Source: an uncultured Gammaproteobacteria bacterium (GTDB lineage: Bacteria; Patescibacteriota; Microgenomatia; Levybacterales; GWA1-39-11). Taken from it: 64,000 nt of DNA. The stretch covers positions 17,535-81,534 of the forward strand of contig CAYVAJ010000004.1 in NCBI GenBank assembly GCA_964448725.1, given 5' to 3'. Position 1 is the first letter of the stretch, and each line of letters starts with the position of its first letter. The notes below the pieces were generated by a model that made no database searches, was not told the DNA's origin, and worked only from the letters and a program-made list of their open reading frames with translations. Shown here piece after piece: positions 655-41,301 of the stretch. Position numbers and translations under genes: made by a program.

Positions 655-655
655 A

Positions 656-1531: not shown

Positions 1532-1533
1532 AG

Positions 1534-2910: not shown

Positions 2911-2921
2911 ATTTTCTCTTA

Positions 2922-8394: not shown

Positions 8395-8961
8395 CTAGGA
8401 AGTGAAGTCAACTTTTACGGGTTCACGTTCGCCTGGTTCTGCTTCAAAAAATTCTTCTTCTTTAAAGCCAAAAATATTAGCGATAAATACGGTTGGAATT
8501 GTTTTCAATTTAGTATTATAGGAGAGTACATTTGAATTATAGAATTGACGAGAATATGAAATCTTATTTTCTGTATCTGTCAGTTCTTCTTGTAATTGCT
8601 TGAAGTTATCACTCGCCTTAAGATCGGGATATGCTTCTGCAACTGCAAAAAGAGATTTTAATGCATCTGTCATCATATTATTCGCTTGAGCTTTTTGATG
8701 AGGGGTATTTGCTTTCATGAGGTCGGTGCGAGCTTTGGTAACTTCTTCAAATACTCCTTTTTCATGTTTTGCGTATCCTTTGACAGTCTCTACTAAATTT
8801 GGAATCAGATCAGTACGGCGTTTTAATTGTATGTCAATGCTAGAAAGTGCTTCGCGAATTCGTTCACGCAGAGTAACCAATGAGTTATAGGTGAGCCATA
8901 AAAACACTAATATTGCTACACCAATTCCAATGAGTATGAATGGGAGGCTTAAAAATTCCAT
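8395..8961 (-). CDS. lemA: LemA family protein
   Basis: 188 aa. N-terminal TM helix then the LemA-like pattern [43 protein letters not shown]. Classic LemA-HtpX gene pair. Confidence 0.6.
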
Positions 8962-9103
8962 ATATAGTTACATTTTCTACTTCTTTATTTCATTTGTCAA
9001 CAGACATTAATTTCTTATTTTACTCTATCAGCTAAACGAGCAGTATTAAAATAATCTTTAAATTTTAAGTTGTGATTTTGAATTTTTACATGTAAGTTTT
9101 TAG

Positions 9104-10903: not shown

Positions 10904-11104
10904 AGAGGTTCTACGTTGGTGTTATATTCTCATTGACTGGTACTCAAATATTTGATACTATTCCGTATAGCCTCCTAGCTTCAGTTTTACTGGAGAGGTA
11001 TGGATCTATTTACTACACCAATATAATAAATTGGTTGGTTGTAATAGGACATTTCGACCAAGTAAATGGGGTCCCCAGATTAAATAAATTTGGGGAGGTG
11101 CAGA

Positions 11105-11181
11105 GGGGGTGTAGCTCAGTTGGTTAGAGCGCTTCCCTGTCACGGAAGAGGCCGCGGGTTCGAGTCCCGTCACTCCCGCCA
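11105..11181 (+). tRNA. tRNA-Asp (anticodon GTC), CCA encoded
   Basis: Manual cloverleaf: acceptor GGGGGTG/CACTCCC, D-arm GCTC-AGTTGGTTA-GAGC, anticodon arm CTTCC-CTGTCAC-GGAAG (GTC), T-arm GCGGG-TTCGAGT-CCCGT, discriminator G, CCA. Confidence 0.85.
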
Positions 11182-11400
11182 CGTCAAACGTGGCTTGCAA
11201 TAGAGCGAGTCGCGTATGACGCGAACGCACTTCGGCGCGTTACACTTGCTCAGTGCAAGTAACAAACCGAACAGGGAGAAAGTTAAGACGAGAAGTTTAT
11301 CCCGATAAACATCGGGAAGTCCCGTCACTCCCGCCACGTCAAATGTGGCTTGCAAATAAAGCGAGTTATGTCTGACGCGAATGTGTTTCGATGTGTTATT
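11163..11400 (+). repeat. Degenerate tandem duplication (about 155-bp period) beginning with the last 19 nt of tRNA-Asp
   Basis: AGTCCCGTCACTCCCGCCACGTCAAA(C/T)GTGGCTTGCAA... occurs at 11163 and again at 11318. Similarity continues for about 70-100 nt at roughly 75% identity. Confidence 0.6.
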
Positions 11401-11492
11401 TGCTTAATGCACATTATACATCGAATAATAGACTTAATTTATTCTGCCTCAAAACTGCCTATAACTTCTTGCCCAGAAGGGAGGTGTATACA

Positions 11493-12182
11493 ATGCCACG
11501 AACAAAAAAGAAATCTGAAACAAAGAAAAAAATTGATACAAAACAAAGAGCTGAGATGCTTACAGATAATCTTCGTGCTCGGATAGCTAATTTTTCCCTT
11601 TCACGTTCATATACGTCTCTTGTATATGGAATTATTACACTTATTGTGTTATTTGCATTAGGCTTTGCAGCAGTTCGACTTTTTACTCAAGAACAAACTC
11701 CTGAAATTTCACAACAGGGTGTTGATTCTACAATAGAGGAGAATAACAACGAATATGTAGTAAAAGAAGGAGAAACATTATGGTCAATCGCTGAGCAAGA
11801 GTATAATGATGGATTTGCATGGGGAGAAATTGCGCAAGCAAATGAACTTCCAGATCCAAACAATCTTGAAGCAGGAACACGATTAATCATTCCTGAAAGA
11901 ACTACTCCGGAACAAGCACAAGACAGTGAAGAGCAAGGAGAAGAAGTAAATGTAACTCCAACTGAAGATGTACCGACACCAACAGCTGTATCTGAACAAA
12001 TGCAAACAGCTGGTGAGCAAATTACTGGATCAGAATATACTGTTGTTGCAGGAGATACCCTGTGGGATATTTCTATTCGCGCATATGGTGACGGATACCG
12101 TTGGCCAGAGATTGCAGCATCAAATAATATTGTGAATCCTGATTTAATTTATGTTGGAACAACCTTAAACTTGCAGAGATAA
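11493..12182 (+). CDS. LysM domain protein (N-terminal TM anchor, two LysM repeats)
   Basis: The ORF track's longest frame starts at 11391. The ATG at 11493 is preceded by GGGAGGTG. Two LysM motifs (GETLWSIAEQEY... and GDTLWDISIRAY...) follow a TM helix. Confidence 0.7.
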   Translation: MPRTKKKSETKKKIDTKQRAEMLTDNLRARIANFSLSRSYTSLVYGIITLIVLFALGFAAVRLFTQEQTPEISQQGVDSTIEENNNEYVVKEGETLWSIAEQEYNDGFAWGEIAQANELPDPNNLEAGTRLIIPERTTPEQAQDSEEQGEEVNVTPTEDVPTPTAVSEQMQTAGEQITGSEYTVVAGDTLWDISIRAYGDGYRWPEIAASNNIVNPDLIYVGTTLNLQR

Positions 12183-12372
12183 CTTTGATGAAATAACTCA
12201 TTATCTCTGCAGTTTATGCTTGGTATTCTCTCAGTGAAGAGGGCTGTGGAGTTGAGAACTCATGTCTCAATACGGATATGTATCTGTATGTCTCACATTG
12301 GTTTATGCTACTATAATTAATACGTAGTGTAGGCGGTTCAGTGAACCTCAGAATTCATCTGCTGTGATATAT

Positions 12373-12553
12373 GCGGGTGTAGTTGAGTGGTACAATGCTT
12401 CCTTCCCCGCCTGAAATCGCTTTTGCGATGGTAGTTCAAAGGTAGAATGTCTCCTTCCCAAGGAGAAGGTTGAGGGTTCGATTCCCTTCCATCGCTCATG
12501 CATTAGCGGGCAGGCCAAGGAAGAGTTCGTGGATTCAATTCCCATCACCCGCT
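12373..12553 (+). pseudogene. Split tRNA-Gly-like gene with a 109-nt insert at the anticodon loop. Intron-containing or disrupted tRNA.
   Basis: The 5' half GCGGGTGTAGTTGAGTGGTACAATGCTTCCTTCCC (12373-12407) and 3' half AAGGAAGAGTTCGTGGATTCAATTCCCATCACCCGCT (12517-12553) together form a tRNA-Gly-like cloverleaf. The acceptor pairs GCGGGTG/CACCCGC and the anticodon stem pairs CTTCC/GGAAG. The insert ends pair GCCTG/CAGGC. The T-stem has one mismatch. Confidence 0.4.
12425..12496 (+). tRNA. tRNA-Gly (anticodon CCC), no encoded CCA; nested inside the split tRNA-Gly-like gene
   Basis: Manual cloverleaf: acceptor GCGATGG/CCATCGC, D-arm GTTC-AAAGGTA-GAAT, anticodon arm TCTCC-TTCCCAA-GGAGA (CCC), T-arm GAGGG-TTCGATT-CCCTT, discriminator T. 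Confidence 0.75.
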
Positions 12554-12893
12554 CATAGTCTCGACCTTTTTGTGAAACAAAAAGAGACAGACTTATTAAA
12601 TCATAATATACTGTTGGAGAAGTAAAACCAGCTAAAAGGCAGAATTCCATTTGTCCTCGGGTATAAAGAAGACTCTCTAGATACATATCAGGCATTCAAA
12701 CGTGAGAAGCATTGTAAAACTTCCTGGGGTCGTAGGCTATTAAAAAAGTTACTTAACAATCAATAAAATGAAGGTCCACTTCTAGTGGAAAGAATAGAAT
12801 AATTTTGCTACTTGATTTTTTTACAAAATGCTTACTATTATGATGTAGGAGGTGCTTTTAAAGCAAAAAAAACAGCTTTACACCTAATAAATA

Positions 12894-15800
12894 ATGCACT
12901 CCCGCAAAAAAAAGTTTAAAGACTATTGGGAATTCGCTGAACTACAAGACAAAAAAGTCCGCATTGCTATTGCCATCTCTGCTTTAGGACTTTTGCTCTT
13001 TATCGCCTTCGCACTTACTTTTCCTTTTTATGATAATCTCTTTACTCGATTATTTCCGAAATCTCCTTCTCTTGCGGACGTAACAGCTCCAACAGTTGTA
13101 CAGTCAAATACTGCTACCGTTTCTTCTGGGAGTGATGTGTCTATTTCATGGGGGAGTCCAACATCAAATGGAAATTTCCTCATTGCAGTATTAGCAGCGC
13201 AGAGCGGAGATGAAGCATTATCGATATCTCAAGCGCCACAAGGATGGACATTAGTATCGGATACTATTAATGAGGAAGTAAGACAGTGGGTATATGCCTA
13301 TGCGAATGCTCCAGAACAGAGTGGAGAAGTAAAATTCACCCTCTCTTCAGGAGTAAAATCATCACTCGTGGTTGCAGAATATAAAGATGTTGCAAAAGAA
13401 AATGCTATAGAAACTCAGAATTCTTTAGTAGGAAATAATGATTCTCCCACTGGATCTGTTGATCCAAATACTGATTATAATTTAGTAATTGCAGCAGTAA
13501 GTTCGGTTGTAACAAGCAGTGAAAGCGCCAGTTTTAATAATGCTACTAATGACTTTTCTCTTGTAGGTCAAACATCAACAACAGGAGATGCTGTTAATAT
13601 CGCAACTGCATTGTTTAGTTCGTTTGTTGCCAATCAAGAACCTGTTAATAATTCCGTAACTATTGGATCAGGTACTCAATGGATACATACAATGGTAGCT
13701 ATAAAGCCTGTTGTACCTATCCCGACCTATACTCCTATTCCCAGTAAAGAACCAGAACCAACACCAGAGACAGAACCTGAGTTTTTACTTCAAGGATTAG
13801 ATCCTGAAAACACACAACAGAGTGGTCTGAGAAGTCTTGCGCTTGAGAGTACACAAATTTCGGGTACAACCTATTATGTAGATTGTCAAAACGGAAATGA
13901 TAGTAATAATGGAAGATCAGAGGGTGCTGCATGGAAATCATTAAATAAAATTAATAATGCCACATTAAATCCAGGAGATGGAATTCTATTAAAACGAGAT
14001 TGTTCATGGACTGGAACCTTGGATGCTGCGTGGAATGGTACTGCTCAAGAACCTATTACAATCGGTGCATATGGAGAAGGTGTGCTCCCTACGATTAAAT
14101 ATGACGGATCAAAAGGCGGTGGACCAGCTGTTAAAGTATCAGGATCATATGTCGTAATTGATAGTCTGAAAGCTACACTGACCAATCCCAATAGAAGTTC
14201 TGATTGTACATTAGCAGATGGGCAAAAACAGCATTTTGGTTATTATCAAGGCTTTAATTTATCTGGTCATCATCTTACCCTGCAAAACTCAGAGGCTACA
14301 GGCAATTCGTTGGGAGTTTTCACTACAGATTCCAGTCACCATAATAAAATACTGAACAACCATATCCATCATAACGATGGTTTATGGAGAATTGGCCCAA
14401 TTCCTCCAGGATCAATGGGTGGTATGGGTATGAATTTGCATGGCGATGATCATGAAGTTGCACATAATTTCTTTGAAAAAAATGATGCAAATTGTGATCC
14501 CCCAGACCATACGCATAGAGGGTATAGTGCAGCAATTGAGCTATATAATGCTAGTCGTGCGCACGTACATCATAATAAAATGGTAGGACATCGAAAGCAC
14601 TTTGAAATGGGTAAGAATAGCGATGAAATATCTGACGATAATATCTTTGCCTATAATTTAATTGTCAGTAATTTGGCAAATGCAAAAGGTCCTAATATTC
14701 ATGGCGCAGGAAATAAATTCGGTCCTGTTAAAAGGACAACAGTAGTCAATAATACTATATATCTTGTGGGTTCAGGGAATACTCAAGCACTCAATTGTGG
14801 GTGTACAGATGGCGCAACAATACGAAATAATATATTTTGGGCAGAAGAAAAAGTCGCATTTTTTAACGGTACATACACAGAATCTAATAATATTTACTGG
14901 GATAGTGATGGAAATCCAAATGCTCAAAATTTGAGTTTGCACGCTACTTCAAAAAAGACTAATCCGCAGTTTGTGAAGGCTGCTGTCAATGATGGTGACT
15001 TTCGTTTGAAAGCAGGGAGTCCTGCAATTGATGCCGGTATTTCAGTGGGATATGATTTAGACGTTGAAGGAGTATCTGTTCCACAAGGCTCAAAAGTTGA
15101 TATCGGTGCAATTGAATATACTGGTCAGGTTGTAACAACTCCAACCCCAACTGCAAGTACTGTTACCCCTACTCCAGGCGTTCAAGAACCATTCAGTGGT
15201 TCACGGATTTCGCTTCCAGGTACCATCCAAGCAGAAGATTTTGATAATGGCGGTGCTACTGTTGCATATGTTGATAATGATACAGGCAACAATGGGAATA
15301 TATATAGACAAACAGATGTTGATATTGAGGCTACGACTGACACTGGGGGAGGGTATAATCTTGGCTGGACTCGGCCAGGTGAGTGGGTAGAATATAGCGT
15401 TAATGTCTCATACTCAGGTTCTTACACGATAGGAACACGAGTAGCATCAAATGGAGGCGGCGGAGTATTTCATATAGAAGTTGATGGTACAGATGTAACT
15501 GGTCCAATGACCGTGCCAAATACAGGAGGTAATCAAATTTGGCAGACAGTTGAAAAAACAGGTGTACAGCTTACTGCAGGACAACATATTGTTCGTCTCT
15601 CATTTGATAATAATGGCGCAACTCAAGGTGTAGGCAATTTTAATTATATGACCTTTACTTTTGATCCTGGTCCTCAAACGCCGTACACAGGTACTCCTAT
15701 TTCTCTTCCAGGCATAATACAAGCTGAAGACTTTGATAATGGGGGTGTTATGGCTGCTTATTTTGATCAAGATGCAGGCAACAAGGGTAATGTGTATAGG

Positions 15801-18800
15801 GAAACAGATGTTGATATAGAAGCAACGACTGACACTGGTGGAGGGTATAACCTTGCTTGGATGTGGCCTAATGAATGGGTAGAGTATACAGTAAATGTAA
15901 CAGAAACAAGTACATATACCGTTGGAGCACGAGTCGCCTCCAATGGAGGTGGGGGAGTGTTTCATATAGAAGTTGATGGGCAAGATGTAACCGGTTCAAT
16001 GACTGTCCCGAGCACAGGAGGAAATCAGGTTTGGCAAACAGTTGAAAAAACCGGAATTCAATTAAGTGCTGGACAGCATATTATCCGATTGTCAATGGAT
16101 AGCAGTGGAGCACAGCAAGGAATTGCCAATTTTAATTATCTAGAATTTACTCAAGACACATCTACTAGTCCAGTACCATCCACCTCACAGGAATATACAT
16201 TATCCGGATCAGTATATGTCGATGTAAATAGAAATGGGGTAAAAGATACTGATGAATTAGGCCATAACGGAGCTGAGGTTACGGTATCAGGCGGATTATC
16301 AGCTAGTACCAATGCATCCGGGCTTTATACATTAACAGTTCCTGCTGCAGTATATACTGTTACTATTACCATACCTGATGGATATGAGGGAACAACTACA
16401 AATCCATTGTCTATTTCAGTCTCTGCAAATACTTCGGCGAACTTTGGTATTGCCCCAACAGCTACTGGAGGTAGAACAAATTCTGTCTTCACAGTGAATG
16501 CAGCTAAGACAGGTACTGAATTGAATGGACAACCTTTTCAAGTTGTTGGTATTCGTGTATCAAATGCACTTATTAATGACGCTAAAACACAACAACTCAT
16601 AGATAACCTTGATGTATTCAGAACTTATGGTATTAATACCGTTAGCGTTTTCTTCCAAGGTTCACGATTTGGTGACATCAAAGGCTATAGAGAAGATACA
16701 ACACTAAATCCTACCTACGCTGCTCGGATGGCACGAATTATTGAAGAAGCTGATAAACGTAAGATGGTCGTTCTAGTGGGAGTTTTGTATTATGGCGATG
16801 CAACCTTTGCAAAATGGGATAGTTGGGGACAAACTGAGGCAAACAGTGCAGTTGCTAATACTGTTCAGTGGCTCAAAGATAATAATTATCGCAATGTATT
16901 TATCGATGTTGATAACGAACAAATGTCACCGTTTGATAGTCAAAAACTCATTGCAGCTGGAAAAGCAGTTGATGCATCCTATGTAATTGGTTCTGGTGGC
17001 AAAATAACGCCATCAAATGCTGACCTATCTTTGCACCAAGGAGGCAAAAATATAACCGGTAAACCATATATTGAATCTGAAGGAACACCGCAAGGATATT
17101 GGGGTGCATATAGCAGACAGTCAGGAGACACACAATATCGAAATATTGGCATTTATACGAGTGATTTAAAATCTGCATGGTTGTCTGAAACTTCTAGTTT
17201 ATTGAATCAAGGAAAAGGATATATGGGTGCATCAACCTGGTTACAGGCCGACCTTCCAGAGGGACCAAATCACATACCTGGTGGAAATGGGACATCAGCA
17301 GATCCTGGGATTAAATTCTGGTTAGAGCATGTAAAGAGTTTGGTTGGGCCGTATGAGCCATCAGGTATTGGAGAGGAGACTACTCCAACCCCAACTCCAA
17401 GTGCTATTACCCCTACTCCTACTCAACCACCAACTGGGGGAACAGGGGCATTTTTGGAAAACAACGGTCAGCTAGTTATTGAGGTAGAGGATTATAATGA
17501 TATTTTTCCATCTACATTTAATAACTATACACAAACACACAATTGGGAAAAGAAAACAAATATTCCAGACTATAGTGGAAGCGGATTTATGCATAATATA
17601 CCAGATGAGCGAGGAGAGGATGGAGTAGGTCCTAATTCACCTCGAGGAAAAGGTGGACCTGAAATGCGGTATCCAATCAAGATATCAACTCCTGGAACAT
17701 ACAATGTCTGGGTAAGAGGGTATACTACGGGAGGAGAGTCAAACGGAGTACATATCGGGGTTGATGGGGTAATGACAGGTACAGAAGCTGGAGCTTCAAA
17801 TATGTCAGGGTTTAGACCTAAAGAATCGTGGATTTGGGAAAGTGCAAGAAAAGAAGGATATACGCTCCCTGCAACTCTCAATCTTACTGCTGGTTATCAT
17901 ACACTTAATGTCTGGGGAAGAGATGATGGATTTAGAATGGATAAAATAGTATTACGAATAGGAAGTGGTGTCCCATCAGGGACAGGACCTGCCCAGAGTG
18001 CGCGAGAAGCCATACCAACTCCAATAATTACACCAACTCCCACACCTGTGGTTACCACAACTCCCACACCTACTCCAAGTGTTCAAGCACCATTTACGGG
18101 AACTCCTATTTCGTTACCTGGAACAATCCAGGTAGAAGACTTTGATAATGGTGGTGCAAATGTTGCGTACTTTGATACGTCAGCAGGTAATAACGGTGGA
18201 GTATATCGAGATACAGATGTTGATCTTCAAGCTACTACTGATACTGGAGGAGGATATGGTCTTGAGTTTACAAGATCTGGAGAATGGTTAGAGTACACTG
18301 TAGATGTTGCTGAGGGCGGTACTTATGATATTGGTGTACGTGTTGCCTCTAAAGTAGTTGGTGGTGCATTCCATATAGAGATTGATGGGCAAGATGTAAC
18401 TGGGCCGATGTATGTACCAAATACTGGTGATTGGCAAACATGGACAACAATCGAGAAAACAGGTATACAGCTTACTGCAGGAGAACATGTAGTCAGATTA
18501 TCATTAGATAGCAGTGGTGAGCAGGCAGCTATTGGAAATATCAACTATATTACATTCACGAAAGTTGTCACAATTCCTACCTATACACTCTCAGGTACTG
18601 TATATGTAGATGCAAATAATAATGGTATACAAGATACAGATGAGGCTGATTATGCAAATGCAATTATTGAACTTTATGAAGGACCTGAAGCGACAGATAT
18701 TCCTTACCACACAGCAGAAACCAATACAGCCGGAGCGTATACTTTCAACACATTAAATCAAGGAGTATACACAGTATCACTTCTAATTCCTGATGGATAC

Positions 18801-21800
18801 AGTGTTACTACAGCTATCCGTCAAGTAGTCTCGCTTACAGCAGATACTATAGTGAATTTTGGTATCGCATCCACACAAACACCTACTATTACTCCTACTC
18901 CTGTAAGTCCTTCAAATCTTCTAAAGAATGGAGGTCTTGAGAGTAGCACTACTGTTTGGGGGTTATATGGGGGTGCAAGTATAATGCAAGGTACTTCACA
19001 TGGTGGTAGTAAAGCTATTCGTGTAGGTAATGCAAGTGGTGGGGGTGAATCAGGTGCCGAGCAAGCTGTTGCTGCACAGCCAGGAAAGACATACTCACTT
19101 ACTGCCTGGGGTATGATGAGTAATTCAGCTCAGAGTGATAAAGGCGCTGTGGGTATTAAATTTAAGAACAGTGCAGGAGATGTTCTTGGTAATGAAACAT
19201 CCATCTTTATTCCTGAGACTGATTGGACTCAGAAACAAGTGTCTGCAATTGCACCTGCTAACACGGCAAGCGTTGTAACTTATGTATATAAAGAAGTGGG
19301 AGATAATACTTTCTTATACATTGATGACTTTACGCTTACAGAAAGCGGAGAAGTTACTACTCCAACCCCAACATTGACAAATACTCCGACACCTACTGTT
19401 GCACAAAATACACCGACTCCAACGCCAGTACAACTATCTGATTTAGTAGTTAGTGATATAACATGGAGTCCATCTAATGCTACTGTAGGACAAAATGTTA
19501 CTTTTGGTGCTACCTTAAGAAATATTGGATCAGCTGCAACTCCTGATGCAACTGCCCATGGAGTAGCGTTTTATGTGAATGGAGTAAAAGTATCTTGGTC
19601 GATAAATCATAATGCGTCTATTGCACCAGGTGACTCAGTAACAGTCACTGCTAATGGTGGTCCTGAAGGTTCACGATTCTGGACAGCGACAGCAGGTACA
19701 CATGAAATTGAGGCAGTAGTTGATGAGCCTGGCAGGATTACGGAAAGTAATGAGGAAAATAATACTGCAAGCAACCAATTTACCATTGTTGCTGCTCCTA
19801 CGGTTACTCCGACTCCGACATCTGTTCCTACTTACACAGTAGATGGAACTGTATATGTAGATACAAATAAAAATGGTGTGCAAGATACAGATGAGGCAGG
19901 GTATGCAGATGCAGTTGTTATGATATCAACTAACCCTGAAACAGCAGGTATAAGCGATGAAAATGGGCGTTTTATTCTTACTGGAATAAATCAAGGAGTA
20001 TACACAGTTACTCTTTCCGCACCTAATGGGTATACTATCACGACTTCCAATCCAATTGAAGCAGTTGTAACTGCAAATACTACAATCAATTTTGGAATCG
20101 GTCTTATTCCAACTCCAACCCCTACAGCTCCTGTTATAACGCCTACATTAACAACAACTCCTACCCCTACTGCAACAGCTACTCCGATTCCAACTGTTAC
20201 TCCTCTTCCTACGGGTACTCAGTCAGTAACATACTCGGTCCCATGGACAAGTGAAGATGTACAAGAAACAAATACATCATTTACGGTAAATGACACCACT
20301 CTTCGAATTGGTGGATGCGGACAGACAGCTTGTTATACTGGTCTTCGGTTTACGAATATTAACCTGCCTAAAGGTTCTATAATTAATTCTGCATATGTAG
20401 AGTACAATGCAGCCCAAAGTAACTCACTTGCAAATGTAGCGGTAGAGATTGCAGGACATGATTCGGATAATAGTTCGCTTTTCTCTTCATCCAATAAACC
20501 TTCACAAAGAACACTTACAGCTGCTAAAGTGACTCCTCAAACTGATACAGTAGTTGCTGCTAATCAGTGGTATCGTTTAGGTAATATCTCATCAATAGTG
20601 CAAGAAGTCATAGATAGAGACAATTGGCAAACTGGAAATAGTATTTCACTTATTATTCGTGCTACATCTCCAACAGAGCAAGATACAGGAATTCTTGCAC
20701 ATAGTTACGATGGAAATTCTGAGAGAGCACCACGCTTAGTAATTATATATAGTAGTCCGATAGGCGGAGAAGAACCAACAAATACTCCTGTCCCTATTAC
20801 AGAGCCTACTGAAGCACCTATTCCAACGTATATTCTTTCAGGTACTGTCTATGTAGATACCAATAAAAACGGCGTAAAAGATATAGAAGAATCAGGTCAA
20901 AGTAATATAACAGTATCTCTGTCAAATGGAGCATCGGTTTCAACTGATGCACAAGGTAGATATCAATTTACTGATTTAATCCAAGAACTCTATACTGTAA
21001 CTGCAACAGTACCAAATGGATATACATTGACTACTCAGTCATCAATCCCTGTATCACTTATAGCTGATACAAGTGTACACTTTGGAATGGTACAAGTACC
21101 AATAGCCACGGTAACTGCAACATCTGCACCAACCCCTACCCCTATTCCATGTTCACTTGTATCAGCCAAATGGCAAACAACCAATAATCAAATAGATGAA
21201 GGTGAGATTGTAGGACTTGAAGTTATAACCTCAGGAAACTGTGTTGGAGAAGAGCTGGAGTTTGAGGTACGAGAGGACGATGGAATTATGGGGTCTGATG
21301 CAACAAATATTATTCCAGCAACAGTACCAATAATCGGAAATAACGCACAGACTTCATGGATAGTTGAATGGCAGCAGGATTGTATGGGATTTGCACTTTG
21401 CCAAACTCCGGAATATTACTATATTGTTAGAATTGTGGGAACCACAACTGAGATACGCTCAACAAATCCAACACTTAAAGTGCAGCGTACCAACAAAGCA
21501 CGGTTTGTGACTATTCCTCATGTGGATGTGACTCAAGATACTGTGAAAATTACATGGAAGACAAGCCATGATATGTCATCACAGATTAGCTATGGATTAT
21601 CTGCAGAATCCCTTGTAAGTACAGATGAGATAAATACCAATATACGAGCAGCTGATCATGCTATTACAATTGACAACTTACTTCCTTGTACTGCGTATCG
21701 GTATCAGGTACGTTCACGGGAAATAACTGGTGATATGGTAGAGAGCCCTTTTGCTCAATTTATAACAAAAGGTTGTGAAGGAAACTCGTCAGTACTTGCA

Positions 21801-22514
21801 TTATCTACCACTGATGTTGATCCTGCTAGTGGAGGAGTTGTAGAGTTAATAGATGAGGAAACAGATAAGGGTATATTGCTCCAGGTGCCTGCTGGGTTTA
21901 GCAGTCGGCCAGCACAATTCCAAATGAAAAAATTAGAACAATCTCCTGTATTATCAGAATTATCTGTACCATCAGGAAGGTCACTCGTTGGATCACACAT
22001 TTATAACTTAGCTGCACTAACAAATATTTCATCAAAATCAGCAACTTTTGAAGAACCGATCTTAGTTACGATAAATTATTTGCCATCTGAAGTATCTAAT
22101 CTTGCAACATTGGCTATGTATCGTAATAATGGACAGCAATGGACACAGTTAGAAAACTGTACACATAACCAAACAGAAGCTTCAATTTCCTGTAATACTA
22201 CTGCATTCTCGGTATTTGCTCTATTCTCTGAAACACCTGCTAGTGAGACAAATCAACCGCCTAAAAACCAAAACTCAAATTCATCTGGAGGAAATTCTTC
22301 AACTGGGGGATCAGGAGGTTCTTCAGGAGACTCTTCAGGTGGTTCATCAAGTACTGCAAACGGACCAGATTTGAATAAAGATGGAAAAATAAATATTTTC
22401 GACCTTAGTATATTGTTAAGCCAATGGAATAGATCAGGGAGCGGTGACTTGAATAATGATGGAAAAGTGAACATCTTTGATCTCTCACAGCTTCTTGTAA
22501 AATGGACTCGGTAG
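12894..22514 (+). CDS. Giant (3206 aa) secreted or surface multidomain carbohydrate-binding/active protein with a C-terminal dockerin
   Basis: Single uninterrupted frame. Features read from the translation: N-terminal TM helix; parallel beta-helix-like region (NNHIHHNDG...); three CBM6/CBM35-like repeats; four Cna-B/SdrD-like modules (Y.LSG.VYVD.N.NG..DTDE); a GH-A (TIM-barrel glycosidase)-like segment; a CARDB-like module; an FN3-like module; Pro/Thr linkers; a C-terminal double dockerin repeat. Confidence 0.8.
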   Translation: MHSRKKKFKDYWEFAELQDKKVRIAIAISALGLLLFIAFALTFPFYDNLFTRLFPKSPSLADVTAPTVVQSNTATVSSGSDVSISWGSPTSNGNFLIAVLAAQSGDEALSISQAPQGWTLVSDTINEEVRQWVYAYANAPEQSGEVKFTLSSGVKSSLVVAEYKDVAKENAIETQNSLVGNNDSPTGSVDPNTDYNLVIAAVSSVVTSSESASFNNATNDFSLVGQTSTTGDAVNIATALFSSFVANQEPVNNSVTIGSGTQWIHTMVAIKPVVPIPTYTPIPSKEPEPTPETEPEFLLQGLDPENTQQSGLRSLALESTQISGTTYYVDCQNGNDSNNGRSEGAAWKSLNKINNATLNPGDGILLKRDCSWTGTLDAAWNGTAQEPITIGAYGEGVLPTIKYDGSKGGGPAVKVSGSYVVIDSLKATLTNPNRSSDCTLADGQKQHFGYYQGFNLSGHHLTLQNSEATGNSLGVFTTDSSHHNKILNNHIHHNDGLWRIGPIPPGSMGGMGMNLHGDDHEVAHNFFEKNDANCDPPDHTHRGYSAAIELYNASRAHVHHNKMVGHRKHFEMGKNSDEISDDNIFAYNLIVSNLANAKGPNIHGAGNKFGPVKRTTVVNNTIYLVGSGNTQALNCGCTDGATIRNNIFWAEEKVAFFNGTYTESNNIYWDSDGNPNAQNLSLHATSKKTNPQFVKAAVNDGDFRLKAGSPAIDAGISVGYDLDVEGVSVPQGSKVDIGAIEYTGQVVTTPTPTASTVTPTPGVQEPFSGSRISLPGTIQAEDFDNGGATVAYVDNDTGNNGNIYRQTDVDIEATTDTGGGYNLGWTRPGEWVEYSVNVSYSGSYTIGTRVASNGGGGVFHIEVDGTDVTGPMTVPNTGGNQIWQTVEKTGVQLTAGQHIVRLSFDNNGATQGVGNFNYMTFTFDPGPQTPYTGTPISLPGIIQAEDFDNGGVMAAYFDQDAGNKGNVYRETDVDIEATTDTGGGYNLAWMWPNEWVEYTVNVTETSTYTVGARVASNGGGGVFHIEVDGQDVTGSMTVPSTGGNQVWQTVEKTGIQLSAGQHIIRLSMDSSGAQQGIANFNYLEFTQDTSTSPVPSTSQEYTLSGSVYVDVNRNGVKDTDELGHNGAEVTVSGGLSASTNASGLYTLTVPAAVYTVTITIPDGYEGTTTNPLSISVSANTSANFGIAPTATGGRTNSVFTVNAAKTGTELNGQPFQVVGIRVSNALINDAKTQQLIDNLDVFRTYGINTVSVFFQGSRFGDIKGYREDTTLNPTYAARMARIIEEADKRKMVVLVGVLYYGDATFAKWDSWGQTEANSAVANTVQWLKDNNYRNVFIDVDNEQMSPFDSQKLIAAGKAVDASYVIGSGGKITPSNADLSLHQGGKNITGKPYIESEGTPQGYWGAYSRQSGDTQYRNIGIYTSDLKSAWLSETSSLLNQGKGYMGASTWLQADLPEGPNHIPGGNGTSADPGIKFWLEHVKSLVGPYEPSGIGEETTPTPTPSAITPTPTQPPTGGTGAFLENNGQLVIEVEDYNDIFPSTFNNYTQTHNWEKKTNIPDYSGSGFMHNIPDERGEDGVGPNSPRGKGGPEMRYPIKISTPGTYNVWVRGYTTGGESNGVHIGVDGVMTGTEAGASNMSGFRPKESWIWESARKEGYTLPATLNLTAGYHTLNVWGRDDGFRMDKIVLRIGSGVPSGTGPAQSAREAIPTPIITPTPTPVVTTTPTPTPSVQAPFTGTPISLPGTIQVEDFDNGGANVAYFDTSAGNNGGVYRDTDVDLQATTDTGGGYGLEFTRSGEWLEYTVDVAEGGTYDIGVRVASKVVGGAFHIEIDGQDVTGPMYVPNTGDWQTWTTIEKTGIQLTAGEHVVRLSLDSSGEQAAIGNINYITFTKVVTIPTYTLSGTVYVDANNNGIQDTDEADYANAIIELYEGPEATDIPYHTAETNTAGAYTFNTLNQGVYTVSLLIPDGYSVTTAIRQVVSLTADTIVNFGIASTQTPTITPTPVSPSNLLKNGGLESSTTVWGLYGGASIMQGTSHGGSKAIRVGNASGGGESGAEQAVAAQPGKTYSLTAWGMMSNSAQSDKGAVGIKFKNSAGDVLGNETSIFIPETDWTQKQVSAIAPANTASVVTYVYKEVGDNTFLYIDDFTLTESGEVTTPTPTLTNTPTPTVAQNTPTPTPVQLSDLVVSDITWSPSNATVGQNVTFGATLRNIGSAATPDATAHGVAFYVNGVKVSWSINHNASIAPGDSVTVTANGGPEGSRFWTATAGTHEIEAVVDEPGRITESNEENNTASNQFTIVAAPTVTPTPTSVPTYTVDGTVYVDTNKNGVQDTDEAGYADAVVMISTNPETAGISDENGRFILTGINQGVYTVTLSAPNGYTITTSNPIEAVVTANTTINFGIGLIPTPTPTAPVITPTLTTTPTPTATATPIPTVTPLPTGTQSVTYSVPWTSEDVQETNTSFTVNDTTLRIGGCGQTACYTGLRFTNINLPKGSIINSAYVEYNAAQSNSLANVAVEIAGHDSDNSSLFSSSNKPSQRTLTAAKVTPQTDTVVAANQWYRLGNISSIVQEVIDRDNWQTGNSISLIIRATSPTEQDTGILAHSYDGNSERAPRLVIIYSSPIGGEEPTNTPVPITEPTEAPIPTYILSGTVYVDTNKNGVKDIEESGQSNITVSLSNGASVSTDAQGRYQFTDLIQELYTVTATVPNGYTLTTQSSIPVSLIADTSVHFGMVQVPIATVTATSAPTPTPIPCSLVSAKWQTTNNQIDEGEIVGLEVITSGNCVGEELEFEVREDDGIMGSDATNIIPATVPIIGNNAQTSWIVEWQQDCMGFALCQTPEYYYIVRIVGTTTEIRSTNPTLKVQRTNKARFVTIPHVDVTQDTVKITWKTSHDMSSQISYGLSAESLVSTDEINTNIRAADHAITIDNLLPCTAYRYQVRSREITGDMVESPFAQFITKGCEGNSSVLALSTTDVDPASGGVVELIDEETDKGILLQVPAGFSSRPAQFQMKKLEQSPVLSELSVPSGRSLVGSHIYNLAALTNISSKSATFEEPILVTINYLPSEVSNLATLAMYRNNGQQWTQLENCTHNQTEASISCNTTAFSVFALFSETPASETNQPPKNQNSNSSGGNSSTGGSGGSSGDSSGGSSSTANGPDLNKDGKINIFDLSILLSQWNRSGSGDLNNDGKVNIFDLSQLLVKWTR
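15207..15662 (+). repeat. CBM6/CBM35-like module, copy 1 (within the giant ORF)
   Basis: ISLPGTIQAEDFDNGG...GGGYNLGWTRPGEWVEYSVNV...GGGGVFHIEVDG...NFNYMTFTF. The copies are about 60-70% identical. Confidence 0.5.
15699..16152 (+). repeat. CBM6/CBM35-like module, copy 2
   Basis: ISLPGIIQAEDFDNGG...GGGYNLAWMWPNEWVEYTVNV...GGGGVFHIEVDG...NFNYLEFT. Confidence 0.5.
18108..18563 (+). repeat. CBM6/CBM35-like module, copy 3
   Basis: ISLPGTIQVEDFDNGG...GGGYGLEFTRSGEWLEYTVDV...GGAFHIEIDG...NINYITFTK. Confidence 0.5.
22368..22511 (+). other. Dockerin-like module (two Ca-binding repeats) at the C-terminus of the giant protein
   Basis: DLNKDGKINIFDLSILLSQW...DLNNDGKVNIFDLSQLLVKW matches the dockerin type-I duplicated D.N.DG.VN..D pattern. 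Confidence 0.6.
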
Positions 22515-22673
22515 ATACGATACTCCGCCAGTATTACTAAGTTTATTCTTAATTTAAGACCCAATTTTATTTATCTTGATGTGATTATATATATGAGGTA
22601 TTGGTAAGTACAGCCTAAAGATGTCAGAGTAACGAATAGTGTATGGTATTCAATAATGAGGGGTAAAACAAAA

Positions 22674-22698
22674 ATATACCCTCTTTAAGAGGGTATAT
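22674..22698. terminator. Bidirectional hairpin terminator between convergent genes
   Basis: Perfect palindrome ATATACCCTCTT-TA-AGAGGGTATAT flanked by A/T runs. It lies between the giant ORF's stop (22514) and the minus-strand ORF's stop (22720). Confidence 0.5.
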
Positions 22699-22719
22699 TT
22701 ACTATGTTGAAGTTAAATA

Positions 22720-23169
22720 TTATTCTACAATTACTGTTCCTTTTCTCTCCGGGTGGAAATAATCATGGTATGTATATTCTCCTGGTTGTGAAAAAATGTG
22801 CATTACCGTAGATCCTTTAGGAATTTCTCCTAAATTTAACTCAGGATATTTTTGGTTAGTAGGATGATCATCTGAATTTACGGAAACTTTTTCATCAGTT
22901 GAATTATTTGCCCACCGAACTGCCCCACCTCGTTTAATAGTGACTGTTTCAGGGATAAAACCATCGTTTGTAAGTTCAACTGATACTTCTTGAGGAAGAT
23001 TAGCAGTTGGTTGTGTATCTATTTGATTCCTAATAAAGGCAAAAATACCTACTGCAAGCAAAATAATAACTACTACAATAACAACAATAAATCGCTTGCT
23101 CTTATTTGATGTTGGTTGATTTAGTGTTTGTGAAACCTCTTGTTCTGGCATAAAATCACCCCCTCTCAA
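22720..23169 (-). CDS. Membrane-anchored small protein with a cupredoxin-like C-terminal domain (tentative)
   Basis: 149 aa. N-terminal TM helix (FIVVIVVVIILLAVGIFAFI). The C-terminal region GGAVRW...STVMHIFSQPGEYTYHDYFHP resembles plastocyanin/cupredoxin-fold proteins, but no Cys ligand is present. Confidence 0.3.
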   Translation of the reverse strand: MRGGDFMPEQEVSQTLNQPTSNKSKRFIVVIVVVIILLAVGIFAFIRNQIDTQPTANLPQEVSVELTNDGFIPETVTIKRGGAVRWANNSTDEKVSVNSDDHPTNQKYPELNLGEIPKGSTVMHIFSQPGEYTYHDYFHPERKGTVIVE

Positions 23170-24363
23170 CTAGTATTGTGGAAAGTTGTTTCGATATTTA
23201 CGGATAATTATAATGAGAGCTATCAGAGCTAATACTGTTGGAATTGCAATAAGTGCTGCTGTAAGAAGAGTAGAATTTTTGTCTGGATCTATTGCGGCAC
23301 CTGCGACTTTAATCTCAAACTCCTGTGGTTGAGCAGGAGAATTTCCATCTTCTGGGATATTTTCGAGTACATCAATAGATGAAGAATATGTAGCATCTCC
23401 ATCTTTCACTACTACTACATGCTCTCCAGGAGGAAGATTTCCAACTGTTGCAATACCATTGGCATCTGTCTGTACTGTTACCGGACCATTAGGGCTTGAG
23501 ACTGTTACCTGCGCTGAGGCAAGTGGTGCATTATGTTCATTACGAACATTGATGATTGCCGAGAATCCTAATGTACTAAATGTAAAATCAGAACTTGTTG
23601 ATTCCTGGCCTGTCTCCGATCCTTTCCCTATTACTCGCAGATGATAGGTGGTTCCTGGTATTAAAAGCGCAGAGGAGAGTGTTGCAGTGTGGGTCTGTGT
23701 AAGCGTTTCAGTACTCTCAGTTACTCCATATTTATTCGTAAGCCCGTACTCAATAATGGAATAAGAAGGACGGTCTGTAGTCCATGATACAAGTGCTGAA
23801 GAATATCCGATATCACTTATTTCTACACCATTAATAGTAGGTGGCATTTCAGATGCTTTGGGAGTAGGTGTTGAGGCTGGTTTATTAGAAAAAGTAATTG
23901 TACTTGCCGATCCTCCACCATATATATTTGCCTGATCACTTGCCCGTACTAATGCAGTACCTCCGCTTACAGACACTGTTCCGCTTCCAGAATTAGCTTT
24001 ACTTCTAAAGGTGACCGTTGCGATAAGCCGATCACCTGACACTGGATTGATGTTTCCACGACTGATTGAGATAGAGCCTCCTCCGCCACTAGAAGGGGCT
24101 TCAATGGCAAAAGCACTGCCTCCTCCGCTAATACCTATAAAATCAAGCTTATCTGCTGGATAGGTAAGATTTACAGTAACTCCATTTACCGCATCTCCTC
24201 CAGTGTTTGTTCTCACTGAAAGAGAAAAACGCTCTCCAACACCAACTGTTCTACTCGCAGGAGAGACATATACAGAACCGGCAGCTTGCACAGGAGTAGT
24301 AAAAGGGGCTATTAATAGAAAGTATACAGAAAATAGAAGAAAAAAACGAATAAGTTTTTTCAT
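23170..24363 (-). CDS. Signal-peptide surface protein with a cohesin-like domain, an FN3-like domain, a Cna-B-like domain and a C-terminal TM anchor
   Basis: 397 aa. Signal peptide MKKLIRFFLLFSVYFLLIAPFTTPVQA. Cohesin-like beta-sandwich pattern VYVSPASRTVGVGERFSLSVRTNTGGDAVNGVTVNLTYPADKLDFIGI...LIATVTFRSK. FN3-like region (VEISDIGYSSALVSWTT...YHLRV). C-terminal hydrophobic anchor followed by RKYRNN. Confidence 0.5.
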   Translation of the reverse strand: MKKLIRFFLLFSVYFLLIAPFTTPVQAAGSVYVSPASRTVGVGERFSLSVRTNTGGDAVNGVTVNLTYPADKLDFIGISGGGSAFAIEAPSSGGGGSISISRGNINPVSGDRLIATVTFRSKANSGSGTVSVSGGTALVRASDQANIYGGGSASTITFSNKPASTPTPKASEMPPTINGVEISDIGYSSALVSWTTDRPSYSIIEYGLTNKYGVTESTETLTQTHTATLSSALLIPGTTYHLRVIGKGSETGQESTSSDFTFSTLGFSAIINVRNEHNAPLASAQVTVSSPNGPVTVQTDANGIATVGNLPPGEHVVVVKDGDATYSSSIDVLENIPEDGNSPAQPQEFEIKVAGAAIDPDKNSTLLTAALIAIPTVLALIALIIIIRKYRNNFPQY

Positions 24364-24387
24364 TTAATTTTAAGTTAGTAATTACAT

Positions 24388-26046
24388 TTAAGATAGTTTT
24401 TTTTCATTTGTCAATAAGCGATATGTGGGTGTGTTCTTGTGGACTAGTAATTCAAGCGTAATGTATTTGCTGCTGTCGTCATAATTCACCTGAACAGGTA
24501 TCTGGAGATAGTGTGAAATCATTTTTGCAATATGACCTTCAAGTCCTGATCCTAATTGCATTGTCTGCACGGAGATATTTTCGTAATTTTTGGAAAAAAG
24601 AGCATCTTTGTCTTGTTCAGAAAATGAAGATGCACGTGCAGATATTTTAATGCTTACTGTCTCTTCAAAATCCTGTTCAACTGCTACTATAACGTTTTTT
24701 TGGCTATCAGATGCGGAGAGAAGGACGGCCATCTCAACTAATTTTTGAACGAGTAGACCAGTATGAGTGACATCACAGTTAGCAGAAAAGAATGGTCCAG
24801 TTGCCATATCAGGTGAAAATTTAAATATTTTTGTCATAAAAGGTGGTAAATTTTGATCTGAGAAATTGGTAAGAGTAAATGTGAGCGTGACATGAAAAAG
24901 TGCCGCAAATTCCTGCTCAGCATTGACTGTGTCACGGCAAAGCTGTGCGATATCAACAACTGATTTTTTTTCTACCAATCCATGTGCGGTAAGAGATTTT
25001 AATTTTTCAATATCACGTTGATGTTTGTTTATGAGAAGGAATTGACCTGCAAGCTCAGTCAGTCCTTTGTTATATAACTGAGTTTTTAGATTTTCACTTA
25101 ATGCCTCAAGCTTGAGTGAAGATTCATCGTATTCAGGAATAGTATTATTCTGTGTCTGGTGTACTGTCTGATCTCGTATGATAAATGTAATGCTTTGCTC
25201 AAATTCTTCAATTATGCTAATTGGTTTTATTGTCATACAGACCTTTTTACGGGGGGCAGAAGTTGATATAAGAAGTAGATCACAGATATCAGTTGGCTTG
25301 TGATTTTTAACAAGAGTAGTGAGCTCAAGGTGACTTGAATCAATAAGCTTTCCATTTTCATCTTTTAAAAATAGTACATCAAAAAGTTTTTTACGTTGCA
25401 TTTCAGAGAAGCTCTTATTCAGGACACGCTGAGCTGTTTCATTCGCTGAAAGAATATGTGTCTCTATATCAGTAACAAATACGAGTTCATTTACATCTTT
25501 TAAAATTGATTCCTCTACTTTTACCTGATATTTCAGAAGATCAAACACGCGATCTTTAATGTGATATTGATGGGCAAGAATCTGCGCAATCGGCAGAAAT
25601 GCAACAAATGAAATTCCATACACAATAAGCGTTGTTGGCTGTTCCAATACTAACTGTAGACTCTCAGGGTTAAGAAGTGTGTAAGTAGTGAGATTTATGA
25701 GTGAAAATATCAAAAAAAGAATAGAATTAGAAATACTGAAAATAAAGCTAATCCCCAAAAATGCTAAATGAAAAAATATAAAGAAAGGACTTTCTAATGC
25801 TCCGGTATACAATATCAGAAGCTGAATAAGTAAATTAATAATAAAAAGAAACGTCCATCTTCCCCAATTACCAATTCTTTTTTTAATGGATGAAATCCAA
25901 AACCCGTTAATGGAGAGTACAATGAGGAAACCTAAAAGTATAATTATCCGGAAAACAATTTCAGGCGATATATGCAGAAAGTTATAAACAAAAAGAATAA
26001 AAGAGGTAGAAGAGTAGATACATGATGCAATCGCAAAGTTGCGCAT
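24388..26046 (-). CDS. Membrane sensor histidine kinase-like protein (6 TM + PAS-like + degenerate HisKA/HATPase)
   Basis: 552 aa. About 180 aa of TM helices. PAS-like segment VFVTDIETHILSANETAQRVL. C-terminal GSGLEGHIAKMI (G2-box-like) and F..F D-box-like motifs. The motifs are degenerate. Confidence 0.4.
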   Translation of the reverse strand: MRNFAIASCIYSSTSFILFVYNFLHISPEIVFRIIILLGFLIVLSINGFWISSIKKRIGNWGRWTFLFIINLLIQLLILYTGALESPFFIFFHLAFLGISFIFSISNSILFLIFSLINLTTYTLLNPESLQLVLEQPTTLIVYGISFVAFLPIAQILAHQYHIKDRVFDLLKYQVKVEESILKDVNELVFVTDIETHILSANETAQRVLNKSFSEMQRKKLFDVLFLKDENGKLIDSSHLELTTLVKNHKPTDICDLLLISTSAPRKKVCMTIKPISIIEEFEQSITFIIRDQTVHQTQNNTIPEYDESSLKLEALSENLKTQLYNKGLTELAGQFLLINKHQRDIEKLKSLTAHGLVEKKSVVDIAQLCRDTVNAEQEFAALFHVTLTFTLTNFSDQNLPPFMTKIFKFSPDMATGPFFSANCDVTHTGLLVQKLVEMAVLLSASDSQKNVIVAVEQDFEETVSIKISARASSFSEQDKDALFSKNYENISVQTMQLGSGLEGHIAKMISHYLQIPVQVNYDDSSKYITLELLVHKNTPTYRLLTNEKKLS

Positions 26047-26124
26047 ATATACCCATTATAGGGAGCAATTGTGTAAAAAGTCTATATCGACAATTTATAG
26101 TAGGTTCCTATTTGTGAGAGTTAT

Positions 26125-36903: not shown

Positions 36904-37000
36904 TTCTCATTGATGCACAGGTTAAAGCATACAAATTAGGGAGAGGAAAAAATAGAGTAATAAAAGAGTGAGAATAAATAATTATAAGAAAAAATTCCAA

Positions 37001-37127
37001 GAAAAAAGCACCTTGGGGTAATAGAGAATAGATAACCCAAGTGACTTTTTTCTGCTGCTTATGCAGCGAAGCTCCATAGGCGTATCTTCCTCTTCACATC
37101 AAACGTGTTTGACCTTACGGTGCTTTA
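37001..37127. repeat. Copy 1 of a two-copy ~120-nt structured element (candidate small ncRNA / MITE-like repeat)
   Basis: Shares with 41185-41301 the outer helix AAGCACC...GGTGCTT, the internal hairpin GCTGC-TTAT-GCAGC (CCTGC-TCAT-GCAGG in copy 2, compensatory), the first hairpin CTTGGG.../...CCCAAG, and the conserved CCATAGGC and CCTTACGGTGCTT boxes. A U-run follows the hairpin on both strands. Confidence 0.5.
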
Positions 37128-41079: not shown

Positions 41080-41184
41080 ACAATCCTCCTTTTAGCGTAC
41101 GAACGACAATAGAAAGAATTATACTATGATAAAAAAAGAAAGTCCATACTATAAGTTTATTATTTAACAATTAAATTAACTCAC

Positions 41185-41301
41185 GAAAAAAGCACCTTGG
41201 GGTATATGAGAGGATATATCCTAAGTCACTTTTTTCGTCCTGCTCATGCAGGAGTAGTGCCATAGGCAAATTTTTCTCTATTGTTACCTTACGGTGCTTA
41301 T
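41185..41301. repeat. Copy 2 of the two-copy ~120-nt structured element (candidate ncRNA / MITE-like repeat)
   Basis: See copy 1. The same box order is present with compensatory changes in two helices. Confidence 0.5.

Follow-up and report, generated by a model that had tools for sequence, protein, structure and literature searches.

What does a bacterium do with a surface protein of 3206 residues, and how would such a protein be held on the cell? The question is raised by a single gene (hereafter, the giant gene) in the 64,000-nt stretch of contig CAYVAJ010000004.1 analysed here (the window). An earlier interpretation made from the DNA letters alone (the sequence-only reading) had taken its product for an adhesin-like enzyme, a candidate for host attachment or glycan foraging. 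Pfam and NCBIfam were searched both with the full-length protein and with 18 pieces of it, and local self-searches were also run. The ~3,150-residue ectodomain comprises some 20 globular modules separated by Pro/Thr linkers, and it ends in a type-I dockerin; a putative cohesin-like anchor is encoded by the second gene downstream. The earlier picture of a giant membrane-tethered protein that binds and probably cleaves carbohydrates was retained, but the dockerin and the anchor gene had been missed, and together they shift the interpretation from a free-standing adhesin to the cargo of a cohesin–dockerin display. Judging from sequence and structural models, we consider it probable that the locus encodes a surface-display system of this type in a bacterium belonging to the candidate phyla radiation (CPR), with the giant protein as its glycan-binding and glycan-degrading cargo.

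The dockerin contains two Ca-binding segments, DLNKDGKINIFD and DLNNDGKVNIFD, in both of which the D.N.DG..N..D loop is intact, and when scanned alone it exceeds the Dockerin_1 (PF00404) cut-off of 22.9 bits. It closes a C-terminal cassette composed of a first unannotated module (X1), an FN3 domain, a second unannotated module (X2) and the dockerin itself. A HMMER scan with residues 2740–3206 over 1.84 billion representatives returned 4438 matches, the best 150 of which were analysed. At 35–42% identity, the cassette also closes proteins whose heads have little in common, such as a PQQ-type propeller, G8 with a CEMIP beta-helix, or DUF5060 with a GH140-type barrel, and the named homologues belong to Ca. 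Daviesbacteria and Ca. Levybacteria. X1 was found in 15 of the 150, at times in tandem, and X2 directly follows FN3 in 118; the tail after X2 is a dockerin in 10 of these 118, and elsewhere it is PG_binding_1, LysM, or FN3 with CarboxypepD_reg and a transmembrane (TM) helix. As this slot serves envelope-anchoring modules, the dockerin of the giant protein is suggested to be an anchoring device too. The profile search of X2 against the PDB matched the FN3 part only and gave no fold assignment for X2.

The candidate partner of the dockerin is a 397-aa protein encoded 0.66 kb away from the giant gene, on the opposite strand. In order, it contains a signal peptide, a cohesin-like domain (aa ~28–165), a Pro/Thr linker, an FN3 domain, a CarboxypepD_reg-like domain and, at the C-terminus, a TM helix followed by basic residues. 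Cohesin was the sole Pfam family matched by the N-terminal domain when scanned alone, and the best PDB match of the family profile, built from an alignment (A4) with an invariant YPADKLDF motif, was the cohesin 2XDH (E = 7.7e-4). Within the window there is a single dockerin gene and a single cohesin-like gene, the latter being the second gene after the former. A metagenome scan recovered 14 relatives of the anchor (31–51% identity), and the 10 low-GC, full-length ones that were examined have the same architecture. At six loci (L088, L091, L093, L094, L097 and L099), genes ending in a dockerin directly flank the anchor orthologue, which at L094 is OGY25817.1 of Ca. Woykebacteria, and all ten of the flanking C-termini tested pass the Dockerin_1 cut-off (24–39 bits). 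We regard this gene neighbourhood as stronger evidence for the cohesin-like assignment than the profile scores.

Those scores leave room for another explanation, in which the dockerin is a generic Ca-binding, non-cellulosomal module, the 397-aa neighbour is an Ig-like surface protein, and their adjacency is coincidental or reflects co-regulation without binding. The match to Cohesin (PF00963) reaches 21.4 bits, below the cut-off of 24.1 (E = 3e-4, model positions 6–129 of 139), the PDB profile match is weak, and a single-sequence phmmer search of the domain against the PDB gave no match. Many dockerin-like modules reportedly lack known cohesins. On the other hand, cohesins came out as both the sole Pfam match and the best PDB match of the domain, and dockerin genes flank its orthologues in six independent loci, one of which encodes a protein with both a cohesin-like domain and a dockerin; a generic dockerin beside an unrelated surface protein therefore appears quite improbable to us.

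The locus with the combined protein (L093) has four dockerin genes around its anchor gene. The protein itself (612 aa, at 8925–10760) resembles an adaptor scaffoldin, with a cohesin-like domain and a C-terminal dockerin, and the next ORF (10729–12477) has further cohesin-like matches; the two together suggest a multi-tier network in that genome. Motif inspection also pointed to protease-like heads (a subtilase D/H/S motif set; an HExxH zincin motif) at L088 3076–5949 and L094 3529–5958. With such heads on dockerin neighbours, the display system would not be limited to carbohydrate-active enzymes (CAZymes). L088 is syntenic with the window: along with the cohesin-like gene it has one for a protein of 1415 aa that combines a beta-helix with a GH115_C-like module, and another for a cupredoxin-like protein (11506–11934; phmmer 3.6e-17 to its homologue in the window).

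A second feature shared with these loci is found at the N-terminus. The dockerin-bearing neighbours of cohesin-like genes have in common a leader, K.YR..INPPY..KD, that is followed by a TM helix of the form ..LF.L.AIPLTV, and the first 46 residues of the giant protein align to it. The TM start that the sequence-only reading had proposed corresponds to one hydrophobic segment, at aa 24–44, in the Kyte–Doolittle profile. The leader may be a signal for export or anchoring that is specific to the lineage. As to that lineage, three independent parts of the locus have their nearest relatives in Patescibacteria or Microgenomates lineages, and the best match of the UvrB encoded in the window is from a Microgenomates-group metagenome-assembled genome (58% identity), the other matches, at ≤58%, being spread over many phyla, so that UvrB resolves the taxonomy poorly. 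We infer that the host belongs to the Microgenomates group of the CPR and that none of its close relatives has been sequenced.

Two modules of the giant protein are putatively catalytic. The TIM barrel was modelled by AlphaFold2 as a (beta/alpha)8 fold with a predicted local distance difference test (pLDDT) score of 88, and all of its top Foldseek matches belong to families of glycoside hydrolase (GH) clan GH-A, namely GH140 apiosidases, GH5 mannanases and cellulases, and GH35 (E ~1e-8). The residues invariant over 60 homologues include R1258, N1341–E1342, H1381 and W1449, which follow strands 2, 4, 6 and 8, respectively, and E1396, which lies on strand 7; in the residue count of the model, one strand (155–160) leads into N161–E162 and another (212–217) contains E216. 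We propose E1342 as the acid/base and E1396 as the nucleophile. The barrel thus resembles clan GH-A enzymes (GH140 BT_1012 and GH5) in its fold and in the Arg, Asn-Glu, His, Glu and Trp at the expected strand ends, whereas it differs from them in being compact, at about 300 aa, and at most 16% identical.

Searches by sequence did not place the barrel in a known family. Pfam Cellulase scored 19.1 bits, below its cut-off of 23.5, there was no Apiosidase (PF13204) match in Pfam and no match in NCBIfam, a 60-sequence profile found no PDB relative, and hhalign of the family against a GH140-type domain from a PF13204-bearing protein was not significant (probability 0.2). A total of 701 relatives were detected at E ≤ 1e-3, from Planctomycetota, Armatimonadota, CPR and others, most of them ~330 aa long, 50–65% identical and with no Pfam domain; the N-termini of stand-alone homologues resemble signal peptides. 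Five genomic contexts of homologues were inspected, two of which were uninformative, and the others included an overlapping sulfatase gene with a GH43 gene, or genes for GH28, GH123, 3-keto-disaccharide hydrolases or an F5/F8-type-C protein. Secreted stand-alone relatives beside CAZyme and sulfatase genes argue for catalysis, and it is credible, given the conserved residues and the model, that the module is a retaining beta-glycosidase of a GH-A family that Pfam and NCBIfam do not classify.

The other module was modelled from 65 sequences as a right-handed parallel beta-helix, a fold of pectin-lyase-like type, with about 12 rungs (pLDDT 91). Foldseek ranked the GH136 lacto-N-biosidase LnbX first (E 3e-14), followed by the polysaccharide lyase (PL) families PL9, PL31 and PL6, with a probability of 1.0 for GH136, PL9 and PL6, and the family profile matched GH136 chains in the PDB at E 2e-32, a score that comes mostly from the N-terminal cap, the C-terminal half being weaker. 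GH136 (LnbX/ErLnb136) and the PL9 and PL6 lyases, its best structural and profile matches, share with it the fold and homologous caps at the N-terminus (TYYV..G.D.N.GTS..P.K.L) and C-terminus (DFRL..GSPAIDAG...DIGA.E), in contrast to an identity of just 16–20% and a TM-score of about 0.5. The choice-of-anchor-Q cap passes NCBIfam choice_anch_Q (43 bits, cut-off 25), and Pfam Beta_helix stays below threshold (23.8 bits, cut-off 25.9). Relatives of the module are stand-alone or small multi-domain proteins with ≤47% identity; the best of them are Patescibacteria proteins that likewise end in a dockerin, and Chloroflexota and Actinomycetota contribute relatives of the 'choice-of-anchor Q' type.

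Within the beta-helix family, E549, E571, N561, N588 and N646 are invariant and an HGDD motif is largely conserved, E549 and E571 being the invariant acids and lying one helical turn apart. In ErLnb136 (GH136), the acid/base and the nucleophile are D568 and D575, seven positions apart (PMC7335108). The core Lys/Arg of PL6 and PL9 are not invariant here, and the family alignment has no invariant core Lys or Arg at all. A helical partner of the LnbY type, a domain or subunit on which GH136 activity depends, was matched neither in the giant ORF nor in neighbouring genes. As neither the GH136 Asp dyad nor an invariant core Lys/Arg was recognised, we do not assign the module to GH136 or to a PL family. 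We read it instead as a putative glycan-cleaving beta-helix whose family is uncharacterised, with hydrolase activity likelier than lyase activity.

Most of the remaining modules are of binding, stalk or spacer type (Table 1). Five are beta-sandwiches of carbohydrate-binding type, i.e., three CBM6-family carbohydrate-binding modules (CBMs), a CBM4_9 module and a GH115_C-like module, and the DNRLRE-like module is a weak sixth candidate (model positions 11–163 of 164) for which a PDB profile search yielded no relative and no fold assignment. All three CBM6 copies exceed the Pfam cut-off of 28.9 bits (PF03422; model positions 7/8 to 124/125 of 125). The solved CBM6 closest to copy 3 is that of AaBglC (8zvk, E 1.1e-32), followed by CtXyl5A (2y8k) and C. 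mixtus (1uxz), and the copies resemble binding-cleft CBM6s at the level of motifs only (YR..DVD, GEW.EY, N.NY). The GH115_C-like module is weakly self-similar to these copies and is distantly CBM6-like. All four SdrD-B stalk modules pass the cut-off of 29.7 bits for PF17210, a family of the transthyretin-like clan, and have the D.N.NG..D..E Ca-binding loop; the Cna_B model itself was absent from their matches in the Pfam scan. The orphan N-terminal domain has no Pfam, NCBIfam or PDB relative, and no homologue was detected by a word-index search among 5.8 billion proteins or in JGI metagenome contigs.

Every module call of the sequence-only reading held. The signatures it quoted are present in the translation, i.e., NNHIHHNDG (aa 488–496), ISLPG.IQ(A/V)EDFDNGG in three copies and Y.(L/V)(S/D)G.VYVD.N.NG..D(T/I)(D/E)E in four; its three CBM6-type, four Cna-B-type, CARDB and FN3 modules are all above Pfam cut-offs, and its beta-helix and GH-A-like barrel, both sub-threshold in Pfam, were borne out by the AlphaFold2 models and Foldseek. 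Besides the dockerin, its list had lacked the CBM4_9, GH115_C-like and weak DNRLRE-like modules, the orphan domain, X1 and X2.

A long stalk with numerous modules for binding and spacing could also be expected of a mainly non-enzymatic adhesin by which a CPR cell living as an episymbiont attaches to its host, with a dockerin that binds a component of the host or of a partner cell, and with a beta-helix and a TIM barrel that merely bind, or that remodel the host envelope locally. Patescibacteria have been described as epibionts with abundant surface proteins and adhesins (PMC11665869), dockerin-type giant proteins of Omnitrophota have been proposed to mediate attachment (bioRxiv 10.1101/2023.11.21.568195), and a viral fold search found the beta-helix to resemble receptor-binding proteins of the phage tailspike type, with generic tailspike-like matches only. 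However, all catalytic residues of clan GH-A are invariant in the TIM-barrel family, whose relatives are the small secreted proteins described above, and the locus itself encodes a plausible partner for the dockerin. We therefore regard a chiefly adhesive role as unlikely.

The surface-display reading, in turn, has several points weighing against it in addition to the sub-threshold cohesin scores and the empty phmmer search. The anchor gene and the giant gene converge, whereas in most of the related loci the genes are co-oriented, and the syntenic beta-helix protein of L088 has the leader but no dockerin. An N-terminal TM helix combined with a C-terminal dockerin is topologically unusual. With respect to catalysis, CAZyme-type family matches were obtained for the CBMs, whereas neither the beta-helix nor the TIM barrel belongs to a characterised family or to a catalytic one recognised by Pfam or NCBIfam, and D568 and D575 of GH136 align to the non-conserved Y544 and Y551 (7v6m, 7v6i; a weak stretch of 25.6 bits). 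The placement of the organism rests on best hits rather than on a phylogeny.

Could the giant ORF be an assembly artefact, with genes fused or repeats collapsed or expanded? The genome is of metagenome type, and exact-sequence look-ups of the giant protein and of the CTP synthase of the window found no match on record. Independent short-read contigs from the Logan assemblies of two Sequence Read Archive runs (SRR7082966 and SRR7082982) are 100% identical to the window within 22589–26514, and they stop at 22589 (L102, SRR7082966), 75 nt beyond the stop codon of the giant gene, and at 22748 (L103, SRR7082982), within the cupredoxin-like gene. The same population thus occurs in public read sets, without the giant gene assembled there. 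Against an artefact, a single frame (12894–22514, plus strand) runs from an ATG through all of the Pro/Thr linkers with zero internal stops, as the sequence-only reading had noted, and the probability of 3206 stop-free codons at the base composition of the window is ~1e-98. An in-frame TAA 6 nt (two codons) 5' of the ATG means that the ORF cannot extend further upstream. The GC content at third codon positions (GC3) is uniform and native, at 0.15–0.31 across all modules compared with 0.26–0.31 in housekeeping genes of the window, which argues against a chimeric join, and relatives with similar multi-kilobase mosaic architectures exist.

The sequence-only reading had also described the internal repeats as near-identical and as a likely hotspot of misassembly or recombination, which did not hold. 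The CBM6 copies are 64–74% identical in protein and 68–76% in DNA, the SdrD-B copies are 44–48% identical in protein, and the longest exact direct repeat within the ORF is 22 nt. Both sets are old, diverged duplications, so there is no obvious hazard for assembly or recombination. No diversity-generating retroelement or other long repeat ties the giant ORF to the rest of the window, and no paralogous modules of it were found elsewhere in the window. Given this divergence and the uniform GC3, we consider an artefactual origin of the ORF highly improbable.

Table 1 Features of the giant gene and its surroundings. Positions refer to the window unless a related locus is named.
Feature	Position	Residues	Strand	Basis
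Leader and single TM helix	12894–13031	1–46 (hydrophobic core 24–44)	+	Kyte–Doolittle mean up to 2.6
Orphan N-terminal domain, then P/T/E-rich linker	13032–13793	~47–270, linker to ~300	+	No family match
Right-handed parallel beta-helix with choice-of-anchor-Q C-terminal cap	13851–15128	~320–745	+	AlphaFold2, Foldseek, NCBIfam
CBM6 copy 1	15264–15668	791–925	+	Pfam CBM_6 81.3 bits
CBM6 copy 2	15756–16163	955–1090	+	Pfam CBM_6 74.6 bits
SdrD-B (Cna-B-type) stalk module 1	16185–16463	1098–1190	+	Pfam SdrD_B 35.9 bits
Clan GH-A (beta/alpha)8 barrel	16476–17363	~1195–1490	+	AlphaFold2, Foldseek, invariant residues
GH115_C-like beta-sandwich	17436–18008	1515–1705	+	Pfam GH115_C 47.4 bits (cut-off 24.1)
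CBM6 copy 3	18165–18572	1758–1893	+	Pfam CBM_6 91.0 bits
SdrD-B stalk module 2	18573–18863	1894–1990	+	Pfam SdrD_B 53.0 bits
CBM4_9 module	18891–19313	2000–2140	+	Pfam CBM_4_9 42.3 bits (cut-off 25.9)
CARDB module	19416–19793	2175–2300	+	Pfam CARDB 70.0 bits (cut-off 22.7)
SdrD-B stalk module 3	19824–20108	2311–2405	+	Pfam SdrD_B 45.7 bits
DNRLRE-like module (weak)	20205–20798	2438–2635	+	NCBIfam DNRLRE_dom 24.6 bits, below cut-off (34)
SdrD-B stalk module 4	20820–21113	2643–2740	+	Pfam SdrD_B 57.6 bits
X1, ~128-aa Cys-containing unannotated module	21126–21509	2745–2872	+	No Pfam match
FN3 (Pur_ac_phosph_N-type)	21510–21779	2873–2962	+	Pfam fn3 28.4 bits (cut-off 25), Pur_ac_phosph_N 35.6 bits (cut-off 30)
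X2, ~160-aa unannotated module	21780–22259	2963–3122	+	No family match
G/S-rich linker and type-I dockerin	22260–22511	3123–3148 (linker), 3149–3206 (dockerin)	+	Pfam Dockerin_1 34.2 bits
Palindromic hairpin, 13-bp stem, terminator-like	22672–22700			Between convergent genes
Small TM plus cupredoxin-like protein	22720–23169		-	Contiguous with cohesin-like gene
Putative cohesin-like anchor, 397 aa	23170–24363		-	Pfam Cohesin below cut-off, PDB profile match, gene neighbourhood
Leader in related loci	L088 3076–5949, 7262–11506; L093 606–3311, 8925–10760; L094 3529–5958; L097 3428–5866; L099 1469–4516

The 64-kb surroundings are those of an ordinary bacterial chromosome, with genes for GatA/GatB, MurT/GatD, PolX, CTP synthase, UvrB, enolase, a PEP-utilising enzyme, PGI and PGM, several of them glycolytic, and four tRNAs. 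The gene immediately upstream of the cohesin-like gene, and co-oriented with it (24388–26046, minus strand), encodes a multi-TM protein of 552 aa that matches PAS weakly and may be a sensor in the same operon. A perfect AGGAGG at 12847–12852 lies 42 nt 5' of the ATG of the giant gene, too distant to be its Shine–Dalgarno sequence; no ORF begins after it, and the ATG is preceded merely by AT-rich DNA. Three ORFs antisense to the giant gene (15600–15983, 17570–17881 and 22253–22564, all on the minus strand) are very likely spurious, and a mechanically called ORF at 12348–12695 (minus strand) overlaps tRNA-Gly and is very likely no gene. Elsewhere in the window, a 55-nt intergenic direct repeat (36998–37052 and 41182–41236), whose copies are 82% identical, shows dyad symmetry within itself as well as a T-run, and is possibly a repeated terminator or a small regulatory element. 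A MATCAP-family (tyrosine-carboxypeptidase-like) protein (26125–27909, minus strand) and a RimK/TTL-like ATP-grasp ligase (35191–36342, minus strand) are encoded within 10 kb of each other and may constitute a bacterial peptide-tail ligase/peptidase pair.

How, then, might the giant protein operate as displayed cargo? The leader would insert or export it, and the dockerin would bind the cohesin-like module of the neighbouring protein, itself anchored by its C-terminal TM helix. Such binding would keep the giant protein on the cell: a retained leader would fix it at both ends, whereas after cleavage of the leader the dockerin would be its only attachment. The CBMs would then hold a polysaccharide surface, be it debris from plants, algae or microbes or a glycan of the host envelope, and the beta-helix and TIM barrel would cleave it, the freed sugars feeding fermentative glycolysis. 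In this way the enzyme array would stay on a cell that is roughly as small as the protein is long. Patescibacteria are described as having tiny genomes, abundant surface proteins and cell attachment, and as fermenters that rely on glycoside hydrolases (PMC11665869).

The same anchor family appears to serve other dockerin-bearing hydrolases in related genomes, which suggests a small cellulosome-like display system. In an extended form, which we put forward tentatively and hold to be possible rather than probable, Microgenomates-group CPR bacteria would have a minimal, hitherto undescribed cellulosome-like system composed of a TM-anchored single-cohesin protein, secreted glycan-active and protease-like hydrolases with leader and dockerin, and, now and then, an adaptor with both cohesin and dockerin. 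Of its cargo proteins the giant one would be the largest, and it would contain founding members of two unclassified carbohydrate-active families. These families would be, with the same reserve, the GH-A barrel family of >700 members and a GH136-related beta-helix in which Glu replaces the Asp dyad.

Relative to known cohesin–dockerin systems, cellulosomal and non-cellulosomal (enzymes with type-I dockerins in Clostridia; the Archaeoglobus fulgidus cohesin, 2XDH), the locus has in common a duplicated Ca-binding dockerin at the C-terminus of a CBM-bearing enzyme, a nearby gene for a cell-anchored cohesin-like protein and, in related loci, clustered dockerin–hydrolase genes and one adaptor-like protein. 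It differs in that there is one cohesin-like module, with a match below the Pfam cut-off, and a C-terminal TM helix in place of SLH or sortase anchoring, in that the cargo has its own N-terminal TM leader, in the protease-like heads of related loci, and in the ultrasmall CPR host. The dockerin-type giants of Omnitrophota, also from a small-genome lineage, are likewise membrane-anchored extracellular mosaics of CBM-like, dockerin/EF-hand and glycan-processing modules (bioRxiv 10.1101/2023.11.21.568195), whereas the protein described here is about ten times smaller, has one terminal dockerin rather than many and an N-terminal rather than a C-terminal anchor, belongs to a different phylum, and has a candidate cohesin partner.

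Multi-modular dockerin-bearing CAZymes are a known kind of protein; the present one is set apart by its lineage, by a candidate partner with one cohesin-like module and a TM anchor, by the leader that it shares with other cargo, and by two putatively catalytic families unclassified by Pfam and NCBIfam. Full-text searches of an incomplete library found no cohesin–dockerin pair described for Microgenomates-group CPR bacteria, which is no proof of novelty. The TIM-barrel family, large, well conserved and secreted, with its textbook GH-A active site and no annotation in either database, is a candidate for enzyme discovery. If the display reading is true, the self-encoded cohesin–dockerin pair would offer a testable mechanism of surface display for uncultivated CPR bacteria, whose surface-enzyme organisation has so far been largely obscure, and cellulosome-type logic would reach a new part of the bacterial tree.

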